DNA from: an uncultured Methanosarcinales archaeon
GTDB taxonomy: Archaea; Nanobdellota; Nanobdellia; Woesearchaeales; GW2011-AR9
Direction: 5' to 3'
NCBI GenBank assembly: GCA_964598745.1
Contig: CAZRCV010000001.1
Coordinates: 1 to 63,052, forward strand
Length of the DNA stretch: 63,052 nucleotides
The translations under genes were made by a program, and so were the position numbers. Shown one piece after another: positions 16,061 to 58,608 of the stretch. Positions within the stretch are counted from its first letter, which is position 1. The number at the start of each line of letters is the position of its first letter. Below the pieces are notes generated by a model. It was not told the origin of the DNA and searched no databases. It saw only the letters and a list, made by a program, of their open reading frames with translations.

Positions 16061-16930
16061 ATGAGATACAAGTTTGTTAACATTCTTGGAAAGTTCCTCT
16101 TTGATGAAAAATTAAATATCATCTCAGTAAAAGACGATTCTTCTGCTTTGCCGCTGCCGCCAGAAAAAATTCCGGCCATTTTGTCCAGTTTTAAAGACAA
16201 AAAGTACTTCGCCAAATTTTATCAGGAAAACCTCAAATTAACTAGAGAAGCCATCAAAAATGCTGTAAATGAGGATCAACTATTAATGCAAACTATTTGT
16301 AACATCGGAGAACTAGATAAAGTTTCTAATTTGTTAATTAAGAGGCTGAGGGAGTGGTACTCATTATACCTGCCAGAACTATCAGAATTAGTTACAGATC
16401 ACGAACAATTCTTAGAGTTGACTAAACAAACTAAAACTGCTCTTTTAAAGAAATTTAACCTTTCTGAGACAATGGGTGCAGATTTGCTACCGGCCCATTT
16501 AGAACAAATGAAATTATTGTGCCAACAGATAATCAACATTTACGAGTTAAGAAAATCTCATGAAACATACCTCAAAAATATCATGCAAAATCATTGTCCA
16601 AATTTGTTAGAGTTGGCTGGAGCAACCATCGGAGCCAAACTTATTGACTTAGCTAATGGTTTGAAACAATTAGCCCTGCTGCCAGCTTCTACTGTGCAAT
16701 TACTAGGAGCTGAAAAGGCCTTATTTAGGCACATTAAAACTGGATCCCGTTCGCCTAAGCATGGTATCATTATTAACCACCCACTAGTACAAGGTGTAAA
16801 TAGAAGCAAAAAAGGCAAAGCTGCGCGCATGCTAGCTGACAAATTATCCTTGTGCGCTAGATTAGATTACTTTAAAGGCGAACTTAAGGCTAAACAATAT
16901 CGCCAGGAGTTAGAAGAGGCTTTAAGATGA
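16061..16930 (+). CDS. nop5: C/D box sRNP core protein Nop5 (Nop56/58 family), short form
   Basis: Nop domain LLGAEKALFRHIKTGSRSPKHGIIINHPLVQ and KGKAARMLADKLSLCARLDYF. Upstream of fibrillarin, as in most archaea. Confidence 0.85.
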   Translation: MRYKFVNILGKFLFDEKLNIISVKDDSSALPLPPEKIPAILSSFKDKKYFAKFYQENLKLTREAIKNAVNEDQLLMQTICNIGELDKVSNLLIKRLREWYSLYLPELSELVTDHEQFLELTKQTKTALLKKFNLSETMGADLLPAHLEQMKLLCQQIINIYELRKSHETYLKNIMQNHCPNLLELAGATIGAKLIDLANGLKQLALLPASTVQLLGAEKALFRHIKTGSRSPKHGIIINHPLVQGVNRSKKGKAARMLADKLSLCARLDYFKGELKAKQYRQELEEALR

Positions 16931-17103
16931 AAGAGATAGAACTTAAAATCTTAGATATTAATCCTCAAGATGTTAGAAAGAAATTACTAGGAATTGGAGC
17001 GCCAACAGAAAAAGAAGTAGAAGAACTCGTACTAAAATTAGGGTATACTATGAAACAAACTACCAACTTAACGATGGAAGAATTAAGAAAACAAAATGCC
17101 TAA
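16927..17103 (+). CDS. 58-aa mini-ORF between nop5 and fibrillarin. Its N-terminus resembles the start of CYTH (class IV adenylate cyclase/triphosphatase) domains.
   Basis: ATGA overlap with the nop5 stop and 8-nt overlap with the fibrillarin ATG. MKEIELKILDINPQDVRKKLLGIGA resembles the ExExK start of CYTH proteins. The rest is too short to form the domain. Confidence 0.35.
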   Translation: MKEIELKILDINPQDVRKKLLGIGAPTEKEVEELVLKLGYTMKQTTNLTMEELRKQNA

Positions 17104-17770
17104 CCAACTTAGACCACACCAAATCTTTGAAATATACCAAGATAAAGACAGCAAGCGCATTTTTACTAAAAGTTGTTTTCCAGGAAAAGTCCATTTTGAG
17201 GAAAAAATTATAACTGAAGATAGTGCTGAATATCGAGAATTTGATCCACGCAGAAGCAAGCTAGCCGCCATGATCATAAAAGGCTGCACTAATGTGGGAA
17301 TAAGAAAAAATGATGTAGTCCTTTACTTGGGAATTTCTCACGGATACACTGCTTCGTTTATTTCTGATATTATTGGCAAAGAGGGTTTAATTTTCGGCAT
17401 TGACCCTGCACCCAGAGTGATGCGCGATTTAGTGTTTTTGGCTGCAGAACGCCCTAATATTGTACCTATTCTAGCTGACGCTAACCATCCAGAAACATAT
17501 CTTACGCGCGTATCACAGACAGATATTTTATATCAGGATGTGGCTCAACGCAACCAGGAAGATATTTTTATCAGAAATTGTAAATTATTTTTAAAACCTG
17601 GCGGTTATGGATTACTGGCGGTAAAGGCTAAAAGCATCAATATTAAAAAAAGGTCCAAAGATATTTTTATTGAAATCAGAAAGAAACTGGAACAAGAATT
17701 TACAGTTATTGACTATAAAATACTTGAACCATTCGAAAAAGACCACTGTTTAATCATTGTCAAGAAATAG
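17096..17770 (+). CDS. flpA: Fibrillarin-like rRNA/tRNA 2'-O-methyltransferase
   Basis: EYREFDPRRSKLAAMI, VLYLGISHGYTASFISDI, ILYQDVAQRNQ motifs. Confidence 0.9.
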   Translation: MPNQLRPHQIFEIYQDKDSKRIFTKSCFPGKVHFEEKIITEDSAEYREFDPRRSKLAAMIIKGCTNVGIRKNDVVLYLGISHGYTASFISDIIGKEGLIFGIDPAPRVMRDLVFLAAERPNIVPILADANHPETYLTRVSQTDILYQDVAQRNQEDIFIRNCKLFLKPGGYGLLAVKAKSINIKKRSKDIFIEIRKKLEQEFTVIDYKILEPFEKDHCLIIVKK

Positions 17771-29015: not shown

Positions 29016-30779
29016 ATGAAGGAACCTTATGGTGTAGAAAAGGATATTGGGTTTATGGGAGTTCTGTCAATAACTTTTAGAAGCATGATTCATGCTTTTC
29101 CTTTAATTTTTGCTAGCTTATTACTATTGGCTACAATTGCTGGTATTCTATTAACTGCTGCCCCTAGAATTTTCCAACAGATTATCGACTTTATTATTGC
29201 TGGAGAAAGTAAGGACATTTTTTTAAAATCGTTGATTTTATATGGAGTTTGCCTTTTTGTTGGGCTTATTTGTAAATTTGGAGCTACCAAGATTAGCTTT
29301 TATATTGCTACACAAGTAGAAGATTGTTGGAGATACAAGGGGTTAAATCATTATTACAACCTGCACTTAGCGTGGCATGATAAGCATGATTCCGGAGAAG
29401 TTGCTACTAAAATTGATAAAGGCGGCGGAGCGATTTTTGCATTATTATATGAGCTTTTTGGCCATAATTTGTTAGTTTCATTAATAACTCTTTTATTTGT
29501 GCTAATTTACACTTTTCTAACCTTCCCCTGGTTTGGAATGGCATTACTTCTTCCAATTCCGTTGTATATCGCTGTAACTTTCATTATTTCGCAAAAAATC
29601 GCCAAAGCGCAAGGCAAATTAAACAGGTTGGAAACAAAAGCCAGTCGAGCACTCTATGATGGGGTTTCTAACGTGAGAGCGGTAAAAGCCTTTGGAAAGG
29701 AAGAATTAGAAACAAAATATTATGCCGGACGATGGGATAAGTATCACAGTCATGAATACAAAGTTGAACGGTTATGGTTTACTCAAGAATTCATTCAAAC
29801 CGCGATAGAAGTAATTTTAAGAATTGCCATTCTAACTTACTGCATTTATGCTGTCATTAACAATAAAATAACTATCGGCCAGTTGATTTTAATCATTAGT
29901 TACCAGCAAATGACTTTTGCGCCGTTAGCTCAACTGAATCAATTATTTACAAGAGTGAGGAGAAAAGCCAAACAAGCTTCCCATTTGTTTGAGATCATTA
30001 GCGAACCAGATCTCTTGAGAGATAGAAAAGAGGCAAAAATTATTGAACCATTAAAAGGAAAAATTGAATTTAAAGATGTAACTTTTGAGTATCAAAAAAA
30101 AGCTGCGGCATTGCATAATATCAATCTACAACTACCTGCAGGAACAACTACCGCATTGGTAGGCAGAAGCGGCGCAGGAAAATCAACTTTGGCTTTATTA
30201 TTGCTAAGGTTTTATGATCCTGACAGCGGTGTAATTAGTTATGATGGAGTAGATTTGCGAGATATTAAACGCGCCTCGCTGCGGCAGCAAATGGCCTGGA
30301 TTCCACAAGATACCAGCTTGTTTAATCGAACCATTAAAGAAAATATAGCTTATGGCAAAGCAGGAGTTGTCATGGCACAAATAGAGCAAGCTGCGCGCCT
30401 GGCCCATGCTCACGAATTTATTTTAAACACACCTAATGGATATAATTCAGTTATTGGAGAAAGAGGTGTTAAATTATCTGGAGGACAAAGACAGCGCATT
30501 GCTATTGCCCGTTCGCTGCTGACAAAACCAAGCCTTTTAATTATGGATGAGTCCACTAGCCACTTAGACAGTGAAACTGAAAAGGCTATCAGTGAATCCA
30601 TTCGGGAACTGCATCATAAAACAACGCAAGTAATTATAGCCCACCGCCTTTCAACCATCTTACATGCTGACCAGATTGTTGTTTTAGACCAAGGAAAAAT
30701 TATAGCAGTAGGCAAGCACCCAGAGTTATTAAACAATCAAATATATAAAAAATTATATCAACTGCAGTTTCATCACTAA
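29016..30779 (+). CDS. ABC exporter, fused permease/ATPase (MsbA/MdlB-like)
   Basis: Six-TM N-terminal half. Walker A GRSGAGKST, signature LSGGQRQR, Walker B LLIMDEST, H-loop AHRL. Confidence 0.9.
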   Translation: MKEPYGVEKDIGFMGVLSITFRSMIHAFPLIFASLLLLATIAGILLTAAPRIFQQIIDFIIAGESKDIFLKSLILYGVCLFVGLICKFGATKISFYIATQVEDCWRYKGLNHYYNLHLAWHDKHDSGEVATKIDKGGGAIFALLYELFGHNLLVSLITLLFVLIYTFLTFPWFGMALLLPIPLYIAVTFIISQKIAKAQGKLNRLETKASRALYDGVSNVRAVKAFGKEELETKYYAGRWDKYHSHEYKVERLWFTQEFIQTAIEVILRIAILTYCIYAVINNKITIGQLILIISYQQMTFAPLAQLNQLFTRVRRKAKQASHLFEIISEPDLLRDRKEAKIIEPLKGKIEFKDVTFEYQKKAAALHNINLQLPAGTTTALVGRSGAGKSTLALLLLRFYDPDSGVISYDGVDLRDIKRASLRQQMAWIPQDTSLFNRTIKENIAYGKAGVVMAQIEQAARLAHAHEFILNTPNGYNSVIGERGVKLSGGQRQRIAIARSLLTKPSLLIMDESTSHLDSETEKAISESIRELHHKTTQVIIAHRLSTILHADQIVVLDQGKIIAVGKHPELLNNQIYKKLYQLQFHH

Positions 30780-31132: not shown

Positions 31133-31142
31133 CTATATAAAG
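31133..31142 (+). promoter_or_regulatory. TATA-box-like element upstream of tRNA-Cys
   Basis: CTATATAAAG centred about 28 nt upstream of tRNA position 1 (31166). Confidence 0.55.
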
Positions 31143-31165: not shown

Positions 31166-31294
31166 GCGCTCGTAGCCAAGCGGCTAAGGCAATCGCCTGC
31201 AGAACCGCTAAGATGAGCCAATGAAATGGTTATGGCTTAGAAGACAGCGATCATTCGAGGGTTCGAGATTTGAGCGAAAATCCCTCCGAGCGCT
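31166..31294 (+). tRNA. tRNA-Cys(GCA) with two predicted introns (43 nt at 37/38, 13 nt in the T-loop)
   Basis: Hand-folded. Acceptor GCGCTCG/CGAGCGC plus U73. D-arm GCCAAGCGGCTAAGGC. Anticodon stem ATCGC/GCGAT with loop CTGCAG[31203-31245]A. T-stem GAGGG/CCCTC with loop TTCGA[31267-31279]AT. Mature length is exactly 73 nt. Confidence 0.8.
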
Positions 31295-31320
31295 TTTAAT
31301 ATCTAATCGATGATAGAGAG

Positions 31321-31761
31321 ATGAGACAAAAAGCTACTTTTGCTTTAGGTTGTTTCTGGGAACCACAAGATTATTTTTCTAAATTACCCGGAGTAATTAC
31401 TATTACTGTAGGTTATATTGGAGGAAAATCCAAAAATCCAACTTACGCAAAAGTTTGCGGGGGTAATACGGGGCATAGTGAAGCAATAGAAATAATCTTT
31501 GACGATGAATTGATTTCCTTTAAGCAGTTATTAAATCACTTTTGGAAATGGCATAACCCTACAGAGAAGAACATCAACCAATACGCTTCAGCTATTTTTT
31601 ACCATAACGAAAACCAAAAAAAACAAGCTAATGATAGTAAAAAATGTATAGAAAACAAGTTAGGATCAAAAGTAGTGACTAAAATTATCAAGGCTACTAT
31701 TTTTTATCAAGCAGAGGAATATCATCAAAGATTTTTGGAGAAAATGACCAGATTTAAATAA
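31321..31761 (+). CDS. msrA: Peptide methionine (S)-sulfoxide reductase MsrA
   Basis: ATFALGCFWEPQ active-site motif, GYIGG..NPTY..VC.G.TGH.E, EEYHQ. Confidence 0.85.
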   Translation: MRQKATFALGCFWEPQDYFSKLPGVITITVGYIGGKSKNPTYAKVCGGNTGHSEAIEIIFDDELISFKQLLNHFWKWHNPTEKNINQYASAIFYHNENQKKQANDSKKCIENKLGSKVVTKIIKATIFYQAEEYHQRFLEKMTRFK

Positions 31762-34410: not shown

Positions 34411-35529
34411 ATGAAGTATACTGTCACGCCGTGGGAAGTAAAAGGAAATGTTGATTATGATAAATTGATTAAAGAGTTTGGCCTAAAACCTTTAAATGAT
34501 TTACCGAAGGTATTCTTGAATGAACTATTGTTTCGAAGAGGTCTAGTTTTTGCAGGACGCGATTTTGGTCAGATTATCGATTGCATTACAAATAATAAAC
34601 CTTTTGCAATGATAACCGGCCTTATGCCATCAGGAAAATTTCATTTTGGGCATATGATGGTAGCAAAACAAATTAATTTTTATCAGAAATTGGGTGCTAA
34701 AGTGTATTTAGCAGTTGCCGATATTGAAGCATATAACTCCAGAAATCCTAATCTTAAAGAGCTACATAAGACCGCAATCGAAGAATACCTTATGAATTAT
34801 GTTGCACTGGGACTTGATCTTTCTAAGTGTGATTTCTATTTCCAATCTAAGAGATCTAAAGATGGAAGAAAAGCAAGTGCATATTACAGTTTGGCTGGTA
34901 TGCTCGCAAGACACGTTACTTTTAATGAATTAAGAGCTATTTACGGCGATATTGAACCAGGAAAAATGGCCGCAGCATTGCTACAAGCAGCAGATATGCT
35001 GCATCCACAACTACCTGATTTTAGTGGAACAATTCCAGTCCTAGTTCCAGTAGGTGCCGATCAAGATCCGCACTTGCGGTTAGCGAGGGATTTGTCAAAG
35101 CGATATAATGTCCACAAGTTTTTACCCCTTAGTTCAACAATCCATAAGTTTATGATGGGGCTTAAAGGAGGAAAAATGTCTTCTTCTGATGAGAATTCTT
35201 ATATTGCATTGACTGACAGCCCTAGTGTTGCTGCTAAAAAAATTAACAAATATGCTTTTTCGGGAGGTCAACCAACTATTGAAGAGCATCGCAAAAAAGG
35301 AGGAAATCCTGATATCGATGTTAGTTTTCAAATGTTGTTGTATGGTTTTGAAGAAGATGACAATAAGTTAAGCAAGATTTATAAGAATTACACCGCAGGA
35401 AAGATGCTTACTGGTGAGTTGAAAAAGTATCTGATAGAGAAAGTTACTGTATTTTTAGAGGAACATCAGCGAAAAAGAAAAAGGGCCGAAAATATTGTTA
35501 ATAAGTATGTAAAAGATAACTTCCTTTAA
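34411..35529 (+). CDS. trpS: Tryptophanyl-tRNA synthetase
   Basis: Class I motifs PSGKFHFGH (HIGH) and KMSSS (KMSKS). ADIEAY and the overall length fit archaeal/eukaryotic-type TrpRS. A separate TyrRS lies at 61159..62190. Confidence 0.8.
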   Translation: MKYTVTPWEVKGNVDYDKLIKEFGLKPLNDLPKVFLNELLFRRGLVFAGRDFGQIIDCITNNKPFAMITGLMPSGKFHFGHMMVAKQINFYQKLGAKVYLAVADIEAYNSRNPNLKELHKTAIEEYLMNYVALGLDLSKCDFYFQSKRSKDGRKASAYYSLAGMLARHVTFNELRAIYGDIEPGKMAAALLQAADMLHPQLPDFSGTIPVLVPVGADQDPHLRLARDLSKRYNVHKFLPLSSTIHKFMMGLKGGKMSSSDENSYIALTDSPSVAAKKINKYAFSGGQPTIEEHRKKGGNPDIDVSFQMLLYGFEEDDNKLSKIYKNYTAGKMLTGELKKYLIEKVTVFLEEHQRKRKRAENIVNKYVKDNFL

Positions 35530-41601: not shown

Positions 41602-42834
41602 TTATTTAGAAAAGGTGGTTTGAATCCTGCCTTTATATTGAGATCCCAAAGAAGCAGAACCATAAGATCTGTTCACTCCGCTAGGAAAGAAAAATACTTG
41701 TCCATAGCCAACTACATCGCCGGGATAGATAGTTCTGCCAGTCAACCATTTAGGCTGACGGGAAAAACCACCGCTATATCCTGGATCCACCCAACCATCA
41801 GTAAGGCCCAATAAACCAACATTGGAAATAATCCGATCAGGCCTATCCACTGGAGCATACCTTCCGCCAGAATTTTCTACCACCACATTAGCTAAATTGT
41901 CCCAAAATAGTATGCCCACATGTTCAGACAATTCTAATTGTTCTAGTGTTTCAATAATGACGTGCTCAAAAGGTTTTACAGTATAGCCTCTAGAAATATC
42001 GATTGGTTCCAATAAATCTTCCTTAGCATATTTATCCCTGTCAGAAAAATCTAGGCCTCCAGCAATTTTTTTCATCCTATAAGCAGTTGAACTAGCGTGA
42101 ACAGTAATTTTCCCTTGTCTAGTTGTTAGGCGAGGTGAAACAACCATATATTCTGACTGTTGCAGATAATTAAGATAATGGCTAATGGTTATCTCTACAC
42201 CCATGGGCAAAGCTCTCACCCGCTCGCCTAAGGAATCAATTTTAGGTTTGGTTGAATCTAGTTCAGCTAATCTTTCATCAGCAAAAGGTTTAACTGTAAA
42301 GAATAATTGAGCTAGCCGCTCACCCGGACTAAAATGAAGATCATTACAGCTAAAATTGCCTATTTCTAAAGTGCTGCAGTCTGGGCCAGAAAAAAAGTAA
42401 GCCCCGGAATTCGCCATGAAACAGCCAAGTCGTCTTACACTGCTCCTTAACTCAGCCCTCACCCCAAAAAATTTAGCCTGCCCAGAAGAGGAAGACAATT
42501 GTCCAAAGTTTATTAGTTCAGTTAAATTAATCGTAGAGACATAACCTGATCTTAGAATAGCTTCTCCTGAAAGAAAATGCTGGTATGGGCGACCAACACT
42601 GGCGGAATTAAAAAAATCCCCAGTTAAAGGGTCCACTTCATCAACATCCTTTATTTTTACATCTAAAGATGCTGGTTGAACTCTTTTGCTATCTTTACTT
42701 GATTCCAGAGGCGGAGTAATGGAAATAAGACCAAAATCTATGGCGCTTTGAATTCCCGCATCATTTAACAGCCGCAAAGGAGAACTGCCAGATAAATCTA
42801 AGGTTTTATTTAATGGATTTAAGAAAAATCTCAT
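41602..42834 (-). CDS. dCTP deaminase-like protein with two tandem dUTPase-fold domains
   Basis: N-terminal LLNDAGIQSAIDFGLISITP..VQPASLDVKI, then STLEIGNFS..LHFSPGERLAQLFF (Glu-containing catalytic strand). The second half has GWVDPGYSG..IYPGDVVGYGQVFFF. The ATG at 42834 forms an ATGA overlap with the upstream stop. Confidence 0.6.
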   Translation of the reverse strand: MRFFLNPLNKTLDLSGSSPLRLLNDAGIQSAIDFGLISITPPLESSKDSKRVQPASLDVKIKDVDEVDPLTGDFFNSASVGRPYQHFLSGEAILRSGYVSTINLTELINFGQLSSSSGQAKFFGVRAELRSSVRRLGCFMANSGAYFFSGPDCSTLEIGNFSCNDLHFSPGERLAQLFFTVKPFADERLAELDSTKPKIDSLGERVRALPMGVEITISHYLNYLQQSEYMVVSPRLTTRQGKITVHASSTAYRMKKIAGGLDFSDRDKYAKEDLLEPIDISRGYTVKPFEHVIIETLEQLELSEHVGILFWDNLANVVVENSGGRYAPVDRPDRIISNVGLLGLTDGWVDPGYSGGFSRQPKWLTGRTIYPGDVVGYGQVFFFPSGVNRSYGSASLGSQYKGRIQTTFSK

Positions 42835-49409: not shown

Positions 49410-49565
49410 GCGGACGTGCCGGAGTGGTCAAACGGGATAGCTTGTTTGGCAATAATGCTAAACGAATCCAAACTCAAGTCCTAGAAGTGAGACTAACGAT
49501 CCTAACGTGCAAAGGAGTCATCTATTGGCTTAGTGCCTACGCAGGTTCGAACCCTGCCGTCCGCA
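49410..49565 (+). tRNA. tRNA-Leu(CAA), class II, with two predicted introns (about 30/31 and 37/38)
   Basis: Hand-folded. Acceptor GCGGACG/CGTCCGC plus A73. D-arm CCG-GAGTGGTCAAA-CGG with G13.A22. Long variable arm TGGCTTAGTGCCTAC. T-arm GCAGG-TTCGAAC-CCTGC. The only CU-NNN-R loop is CTCAAG (49473-49478). Model: stem ATAG[49441-49471]A / TCTAT, with a second intron at 49479-49519. Mature length 84 nt. Boundaries are uncertain. Confidence 0.6.
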
Positions 49566-58454: not shown

Positions 58455-58608
58455 TGGGGCTGCCCGGATTTGAACCGGGGTTCAGTGGTTTTTTTGTTTT
58501 CGGTCATCGCCGAGGGCTCACCCAAACCACTAGTGATAAATTACTCGAAGCGGGAGTGCAGTTCACTTAAATCAGCATCCCGCCATCACCAAGCTACACT
58601 ACAGCCCC
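58455..58608 (-). tRNA. tRNA-Pro(UGG) with two predicted introns (~50 nt in the D-loop, 31 nt at 37/38)
   Basis: Hand-folded on the minus strand. Acceptor GGGGCTG/CAGCCCC plus A73. D-arm GTGT-AGCTTGGT[58587-58538]A-TCAC. Anticodon stem AGTGG/CCACT with loop TTTGGG[58520-58490]A. T-arm CCCGG-TTCAAAT-CCGGG. Mature length 73 nt. Confidence 0.7.

Follow-up and report, generated by a model that had tools for sequence, protein, structure and literature searches.

The tRNA-Cys(GCA) gene analysed here lies at positions 31166-31294 of a 63,052-nt stretch of contig CAZRCV010000001.1 (hereafter the window, i.e. the whole stretch of DNA that was analysed) and carries one insert in the anticodon loop and another in the T-loop, an uncommon layout. 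Its closest described counterpart is the pre-tRNA-Cys(GCA) of ARMAN-2 (Candidatus Micrarchaeum acidiphilum), for which Fujishima et al. (2011, PMC3239211) report a 13-nt intron at position 59/60 with a bulge-helix-loop motif (BHL, also termed hBH) that is cleaved in vitro by the cognate epsilon2 splicing endonuclease (EndA). The window gene agrees with it in isoacceptor, in the 59/60 position, in the intron length of 13 nt and in the hBH motif, and ARMAN-2 is, according to the same source, likewise a member of DPANN with many disrupted tRNA genes. The comparison refers to position, length and motif of the intron. Furthermore, ARMAN-2 belongs to the Micrarchaeota whereas the host of the window appears to be Woesearchaeota-like, and its gene is described in the accessible part of that paper with the 59/60 intron only, while the window gene has an additional 43-nt intron at 37/38. 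The EndA of ARMAN-2 is a three-unit epsilon2 enzyme (PMC3239211), whereas the EndA encoded beside a related tRNA-Cys gene (locus L132) is a 193-aa alpha-type protein.

Introns at 53/54, 56/57 and 59/60, several introns in one gene and the motifs hBH and HBh' are well documented in Crenarchaeota, Nanoarchaeota and ARMAN (PMC4090602). As in the window gene, tRNA genes of Thermoproteales and other Crenarchaeota contain one to three introns (Marck & Grosjean 2003; Sugahara et al. 2008; PMC4090602), including introns at these three sites with hBH and HBh' motifs and combinations of canonical and non-canonical introns in one gene (PMC4090602). However, these organisms belong to another superphylum, possess a heterotetrameric (alpha-beta)2 EndA with a Crenarchaea-specific loop and are hyperthermophiles with G+C-rich genomes, in contrast to the G+C content of about 37% in the window. 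Kaneta et al. (2018, PMC5829648) related tRNA disruption to the EndA type and included one Woesearchaeota and one Pacearchaeota genome; their study reports a marked rise in disrupted tRNA genes in DPANN lineages with the L3-loop alpha4-type EndA and also remarks that the tRNA sets of these lineages are incompletely predicted. It is a genome-level tally which, in its accessible part, contains neither this gene nor its intron family nor the variation at 59/60 in Woesearchaeota. Variation of the intron content between related genomes, as found here, is known from the tRNA-Thr(GGU) of Caldiarchaeum subterraneum, where it was interpreted as a recent gain of introns (Sugahara et al. 2012, PMC3293823). 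That case, however, concerns one population and a mobile element with a recombinase (PMC3293823), whereas the carriers compared here differ by 23-34% in their neighbour genes and the surroundings of the window gene showed no mobile element. Thus, the kind of gene is already known; new are its lineage, the co-occurrence with an intron at 37/38 and the comparative picture of the locus.

The region 31166-31294 was confirmed to be a real tRNA-Cys(GCA) gene that is interrupted twice. It very probably encodes a functional tRNA with a 129-nt body and two protein-spliced introns, located at 37/38 and 59/60. The gene is composed of the following elements:

31166..31294 (+): tRNA-Cys(GCA) gene, detected by Rfam and ARAGORN; precursor body of 129 nt, predicted to be spliced to 73 nt; CCA not encoded

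31166..31202 (+): exon 1, positions 1-37 (acceptor stem 5' strand, D arm, anticodon stem 5' strand, loop CUGCAG with G37)

31203..31245 (+): intron 1, 43 nt, canonical position 37/38; removal of 31204-31246 would yield an identical product

31197..31200 (+): top strand CUGC (nt 32-35) of the intron 1 central helix, pairing with GAAG 31240-31243 (C-G, U-A, G.A, C-G)

31208..31240 (+): internal hairpin of intron 1, formed by CUAAG 31208-31212 and CUUAG 31236-31240 plus an inner helix

31246..31267 (+): exon 2, positions 38-59 (A38, anticodon stem 3' strand, variable loop CAUUC, T stem 5' strand, T-loop UUCGAG)

31268..31280 (+): intron 2, 13 nt (AUUUGAGCGAAAA), predicted position 59/60; the first choice of the initial annotation was 31267-31279

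31262..31281 (+): hBH (bulge-helix-loop) motif of intron 2 in the minimum-energy fold; its helix is kept in 21 distinct T-loop inserts

31281..31294 (+): exon 3, positions 60-73 (U60, T stem 3' strand, acceptor stem 3' strand, discriminator U73)

The initial annotation had proposed a tRNA-Cys(GCA) with two introns, which was borne out by a covariance match, by ARAGORN on the spliced forms and by the comparative data. In a local search of 601 nt the Rfam tRNA model RF00005 matched the gene over its entire length (model positions 1-71 of 71) with 39.9 bits, at a gathering score of 29 (E 5.5e-7), and the alignment assigns 46 nt to the anticodon loop and 15 nt to the T-loop, where the model expects 3 and 2, respectively. 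ARAGORN recognised a 73-nt tRNA-Cys(GCA) once both inserts were deleted, or once insert 2 was deleted and the intron mode was used, in which case it placed a 43-nt intron at 37-38. No tRNA was called by ARAGORN on the raw precursor or after deletion of insert 1 alone. Across the 63-kb window neither ARAGORN with default settings nor Rfam at the gathering threshold with default filters detected any tRNA, and a permissive Rfam scan of the whole window also missed the tRNA-Cys, whose match appeared in the 601-nt local search only.

The spliced gene forms a perfect Cys cloverleaf with GCA at positions 34-36, G37 and the discriminator U73 (T at 31294), and the stems, loops, helices and discriminator listed in the initial annotation are all present. 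The acceptor stem consists of GCGCTCG (31166-31172) and CGAGCGC (31287-31293), the anticodon stem of ATCGC (31192-31196) and GCGAT (31247-31251) and the T stem of GAGGG (31257-31261) and CCCTC (31282-31286), while the anticodon loop is composed of CTGCAG (31197-31202) and A 31246. The G+C content amounts to 63% in the exons, 42% and 31% in the introns and 32% in the flanks. The fold of the whole 129-nt precursor, which includes an extended T arm, reaches -46.9 kcal/mol (z = -3.3; none of 200 shuffles was as good). The gene is the single copy of tRNA-Cys within the window.

Homologs of the tryptophanyl-tRNA synthetase (TrpRS) on long contigs led to three syntenic loci (L001-L003), in which an intron-less 73-nt tRNA-Cys(GCA) gene (L001:6216-6288, L002:6394-6466, L003:635-707) is accompanied by the genes for Topo VI B and A, PPIase, NFACT_N and TrpRS. 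The T-loop of these genes reads TTCGAGT in L001 and TTCAAGT in L002 and L003. Metagenome contigs were furthermore scanned with a pattern reaching from the D loop to the anticodon, which yielded at least 120 loci; the proportions given in the following therefore describe a sample and not a census. More than 20 of the metagenome loci listed have the same neighbour genes with a DNA identity of 66-77%, and these loci are regarded as positional orthologs from different species. Among the matches listed, 85 distinct complete genes were parsed: 40 without intron, 20 with the 37/38 intron only (including L098), 13 with the 37/38 intron and a T-loop insert, eight with a T-loop insert only and four with an insert between 53 and 54. 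Identical mature tRNA bodies were seen with zero, one or two introns. A polymorphism within one species was considered and dropped, since an intron-less gene with identical exons occurs in genomes whose neighbour genes are just 66-73% identical on the DNA level.

In intron 2 the sequence UUCG (31262-31265) pairs with CGAA (31275-31278) in all four positions and stacks on the T stem; it is followed by the 3' bulge AAU (31279-31281), while AGA (31266-31268) follows the helix on the 5' strand at the start of a 9-nt loop (31266-31274), and the 5' cut would fall after G31267. The minimum-energy fold of the isolated T arm, (((((((((.........))))...))))), reproduces the 4-bp TTCG/CGAA helix on the T stem and the 3-nt AAT bulge as initially described. 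Intron 2 thus shows the exon helix, the 3-nt bulge, the 4-bp helix and a 5' site located 2 nt inside the loop that are characteristic of the relaxed hBH motif. The initial annotation had called this arrangement a textbook motif, which holds for the true 3-nt bulge on the 3' side but not for the 5' side, where the cut is placed in a 9-nt hairpin loop that fits at most one U.G pair. Judging from its geometry, the motif in the T arm is a minimal relaxed version and not a textbook bulge-helix-bulge (BHB).

The related genes contain 21 distinct T-loop inserts of 13-78 nt which fall into several unrelated sequence families. In these inserts, nt 54-57 pair with the 4 nt preceding the 3-nt bulge at the T stem with a mean of 3.71 of 4 pairs, as opposed to 1.0-2.6 of 4 pairs in six other registers used as control. 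In a trimmed alignment of the inserts 96.9% of the cells were paired versus 46-78% in slid controls, and pair 57 changes from G-C to A-U in three sequences (compensatory UUCA/UGAA). Inserts of at least 17 nt form an outer helix of 3-10 bp directly after the 3-nt 5' bulge and hence a full hBHBh' motif. The four shortest inserts (those of the window, L062, L167 and L087) have no room for the outer helix and are therefore bulge-helix-loop motifs.

According to the alignment, intron 1 belongs to a family of homologous 37/38 introns from related genes, and the corresponding intron of L098, which lacks the junction ambiguity, fixes the site at 37/38. The ends of the family are conserved (A-UCCGCUAG-GAUGAGC ... 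GAUGA-CAAGAAGAC), whereas the window copy has diverged in the 3' half of the middle. The 3' bulge ACA (31244-31246) correctly abuts the anticodon stem; an exon-side helix and a 3-nt 3' bulge are present in both introns. Over 34 distinct related introns the BHB register reaches a mean of 3.09 of 4 pairs versus 0.7-2.1 in other registers; nearly all of them have exactly one inner mismatch and in most of them the outer helix comprises 0-1 bp. Taken together, intron 1 is canonical by position and relaxed by motif, so that its initial description as canonical stands for the site and not for the motif, whose central helix is interrupted by a G.A mismatch and whose 5' bulge is not closed by a further helix. 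Folded alone, intron 1 reaches -9.3 kcal/mol (z = -2.5). The CTAAG/CTTAG helix which had been described for it is present at 31208-31212 and 31236-31240 in the intron fold; it competes, however, with the central helix of the BHB for G31240. Within the intron family, the 3' strand of the anticodon stem recurs as a copy, AGCGAU. A role of the 37/38 intron as box C/D guide RNA was considered due to a perfect AUGAUGA in some copies and rejected, as a D box (CUGA) is missing close to the 3' end and there is no complementarity of guide length, with just 4-5 bp to the D loop or the anticodon stem.

The initial annotation removed 31267-31279 as intron 2 and mentioned a shift by 1 nt as a possibility. 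Cleavage at 58/59 or 57/58 would leave the mature T-loop UUCGAAU, and this junction has in its favour that ARAGORN types the resulting product, like the alternative one, as a 73-nt tRNA-Cys(gca) and that UUCGAAU is the generic T-loop consensus. We applied the rule that EndA cuts between nt 2 and 3 of each 3-nt bulge, which was derived from the canonical 37/38 geometry and is consistent with PMC4090602. With the bulges AGA and AAU this rule places the symmetric cuts after G31267 and A31280 (31267|31268 and 31280|31281), so that the intron would comprise 31268-31280 and leave the loop UUCGAGU. Among the 59 uninterrupted T-loops of the 85 distinct genes, some of which carry a 37/38 intron, TTCGAGT occurs in 37 and TTCGAAT in three. 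In addition, the intron-less genes of L128 and L138, which share exon 1 with the window gene, carry UUCGAGU and are identical in 73 of 73 nt to the product predicted after removal of 31203-31245 and 31268-31280, an observation made directly on the sequences. Six groups of genes share identical mature bodies under the cleavage rule, and four of the six include an observed intron-less gene that equals the spliced product. The position 59/60 also has a precedent in ARMAN-2 (PMC3239211). Since the cleavage rule, the T-loop counts, the identity to L128 and L138 and the groups of identical bodies agree, the junction of intron 2 is most likely 31268-31280 at 59/60 with the mature loop UUCGAGU, and a cut leaving UUCGAAU seems unlikely. 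Hence, the 13-nt T-loop intron of the initial annotation exists, its primary cut was presumably off by 1 nt, and the shift it had allowed for is favoured.

It might furthermore be argued that a tRNA-Cys pseudogene with loop insertions, either decaying or silent, occupies the locus while tRNA-Cys is supplied by another gene. Neither insert has a strict BHB and a second gene copy may lie beyond the 63-kb window; small DPANN genomes, however, usually contain one gene per tRNA. Every stem is perfect and all identity elements are preserved, the exons match those of a gene from another lineage without a difference, a promoter box is in place and the locus corresponds to the conserved syntenic position of tRNA-Cys. 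Moreover, both inserts keep the register-specific helix and bulge required by EndA, a constraint which is common to dozens of orthologs. All three tRNA genes of the window are interrupted twice, which fits a lineage with a permissive endonuclease and also makes decay unlikely, so that we consider a pseudogene very improbable. Even less credible is a retention of the 13-nt insert in a tRNA working with a 20-nt T-loop or an extended T arm: nothing speaks directly for it apart from the stable 4-bp helix by which the insert lengthens the T stem, whereas inserts of 13-78 nt at the same site have unrelated interiors and always keep the cleavage geometry but no feature of a T-loop. Genes without intron account for 40 of the 85 distinct orthologs, and the equivalent insert of ARMAN-2 is cleaved by EndA (PMC3239211).

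Several observations weigh against a functional gene with two protein-spliced introns. Neither intron forms a strict hBHBh' motif, the substrate type of alpha4 and alpha'2 EndA, with two 3-nt bulges and an outer helix at each of them; in intron 1 the central helix has three of four pairs due to the G.A mismatch and the 5' bulge is followed by 0 bp. RNAalifold of the intron 1 family gave a weak rod-like consensus of -5.7 kcal/mol with one covarying pair, which seems neither to support nor to replace the relaxed BHB. The isolated fold of the T arm is no better than shuffles (z = -1.3), so that the weight lies on the covariance model and the comparative data. A partial check of the window, consisting of a motif search and 10 open reading frames (ORFs), did not find EndA or RtcB. 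According to PMC3239211, the euryarchaeal alpha4 EndA needs a strict BHB, and cleavage of the relaxed motifs described here therefore depends on a putative enzyme of broad specificity. Finally, a second, intact tRNA-Cys gene may exist elsewhere in the genome. On the other hand, DPANN alpha4-type EndA with an extra L3 loop accompanies more disrupted tRNA genes (PMC5829648).

For the doubly spliced tRNA-Cys(GCA) preferred here we propose that transcription would start from the TATA-like box at 31135-31141 and that the transcript ends would then be processed. EndA would cut out intron 1 (31203-31245) at the relaxed BHB, formed by the anticodon stem, the ACA bulge and the CUGC/GAAG helix, and intron 2 (31268-31280) at the hBH, formed by the T stem, the AAU bulge, the UUCG/CGAA helix and the 9-nt loop. 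A ligase of the RtcB type would presumably join the three exons to the 73-nt tRNA with the T-loop UUCGAGU, to which CCA would be added since none is encoded. The gene, both inserts and their motifs can be read directly from the DNA, whereas transcription, cleavage by EndA at these exact bonds and ligation are deduced, the enzymology on the grounds of published work. The presumed signals flanking the gene are:

31135..31141 (+): TATA-like box ATATAAA, preceded by the purine-rich CGAAAA and starting at -31 from the mature 5' end; presumed archaeal promoter

31294..31297 (+): run of four T (discriminator plus TTT), presumed oligo-T terminator

When 98 distinct sequences upstream of related tRNA-Cys genes were compared, 63 had a WTATAWA box at a distance of 30-37 nt, mainly at -31 to -34, and a TATA-like box also precedes the genes of L001 and L002. 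ATATAAA is the presumed promoter of the window gene. T-rich tails follow most of the related tRNA-Cys genes on the 3' side.

An endonuclease gene was detected in a metagenome contig of 3.2 kb, where it starts about 80 nt behind a tRNA-Cys gene that has no intron (L132:2306-2884, + strand). It was found by phmmer with the M. jannaschii EndA as query and was confirmed independently by Pfam and PDB. The predicted splicing endonuclease of 193 aa contains the domains tRNA_int_endo_N and tRNA_int_endo and is an alpha-type EndA whose closest solved relatives are the alpha subunit of N. equitans (3IEY_A) and the enzymes of M. kandleri (5X89) and M. jannaschii (1A79). A sequence motif of EndA had no match in the window or in 832 kb of the collected loci.

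Genes for topoisomerase VI subunit A, Nop5 and fibrillarin as well as a long operon of ribosomal proteins mark the window as archaeal. Its TrpRS (34411-35529) shares 70-83% identity with proteins that are labelled Woesearchaeota, Nanoarchaeota or Nanoarchaeia by their sources. Because of these markers and the relatives of the TrpRS, the host is regarded as a DPANN archaeon of the Woesearchaeota type. The tRNA-Cys gene is located in a gap of 541 nt between the ORF of an ABC transporter (29016-30779) and msrA (31321-31761). Integration scars in the window were considered and dropped, since partial copies of tRNA-Cys are absent there. At 16061-17770 (+) the genes for Nop5 (E 1.9e-56 with Pfam Nop) and fibrillarin (E 1.4e-72) are adjacent to each other, so that the organism has box C/D ribonucleoprotein (RNP) proteins; these also cooperate with L7Ae. 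At 42517-42649 (+) Rfam gave a weak match to snR11, an H/ACA snoRNA of yeast, which remained below the cut-off (25.2 bits versus 42, E 0.037). This match is located inside the ORF 41602-42834 on the opposite strand and is most likely due to chance.

The two other hidden tRNA genes were found by the permissive Rfam scan and their introns were placed by hand, as the intron mode of ARAGORN is too permissive for typing. The first one at 49410-49565 (+; Rfam tRNA, 38.6 bits) would be spliced to an 84-nt class II tRNA-Leu(CAA) by removal of 49442-49472 (31 nt, position 31/32, containing the helix UUUGG/CCAAA) and 49479-49519 (41 nt, position 37/38). ARAGORN accepts the spliced form, while its intron mode mis-types the raw gene as tRNA-Glu. 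The second one at 58455-58608 (-; Rfam tRNA, 36.6 bits) is a tRNA-Pro(UGG) gene with a 31-nt intron at 37/38 (58490-58520) and a D-loop insert of about 48-50 nt. A BLAST search of the exons of both tRNAs against the collected loci gave no useful matches.

The comparative data allow the tentative and rather doubtful suggestion that introns turn over fast at the syntenic tRNA-Cys of Woesearchaeota and, tied to this, that the 37/38 family carries a module resembling a kink-turn (K-turn) which possibly binds L7Ae. Position 59/60 holds at least 21 distinct inserts and position 53/54 holds others. The latter, 29-31 nt in length, are inserted between the T stem and T54 in L111, L160 (as well as the truncated L081), L169 and L173, and each of them ends with ...CUCGAA right before UUCGAGU. 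The site 53/54 itself is known from the tRNA-Pro of ARMAN-2 and from Thermoproteales (PMC3239211; PMC4090602). In L162, L175 and L177 partial second copies of tRNA-Cys were observed about 10-20 nt downstream of the complete gene, which span from the D loop or the anticodon arm to the 3' end; the fragment in L175 includes the first part of a T-loop intron. These copies resemble the direct repeats that remain when elements integrate into the tRNA gene. Because such partial gene copies adjoin tRNA-Cys in these three loci, the turnover might be linked to mobile elements integrating into the 3' half of tRNA-Cys.

The K-turn-like pattern GA-stem-loop-stem-NNN-GA with a stem of at least 3 bp was found in 28 of the 34 distinct 37/38 introns, whereas 4.6 were expected from shuffles. 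Most copies read AUGA-stem-[G/A]AU-GA, and the stems covary while the GA dinucleotides are fixed. Among the carriers are the 37/38 introns of L062, L066, L078, L082, L088, L104, L125 and L161. The tRNA-Pro intron of the window (58490-58520, - strand) contains the pattern as UGA-GCC-CUC-GGC-GAU-GA, whereas it is degenerate in intron 1 of the window tRNA-Cys, in which the 3' GAUGA is replaced by UAUGG. This signature may be an L7Ae site; we found no literature on K-turns in tRNA introns of DPANN.

The current understanding of archaeal tRNA splicing is unchanged by these results. Since default tools miss doubly interrupted tRNAs, DPANN genomes will seem to lack part of their tRNA complement unless they are searched with programs that allow for non-canonical introns. 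With the window gene, the 13-nt hBH intron at 59/60 of tRNA-Cys, experimentally validated in a single case, is extended to a second DPANN lineage. If the suggested fast turnover is true, the locus would provide a natural system in which archaeal BHB introns can be watched being gained, swapped and lost, and the K-turn-like module, if true, would represent a new kind of structured tRNA intron. The position 59/60 tolerates many inserts provided that the 4-bp helix and the 3-nt bulge abut the T stem, and this tolerance offers a clean natural read-out of what the splicing endonuclease of the lineage needs.

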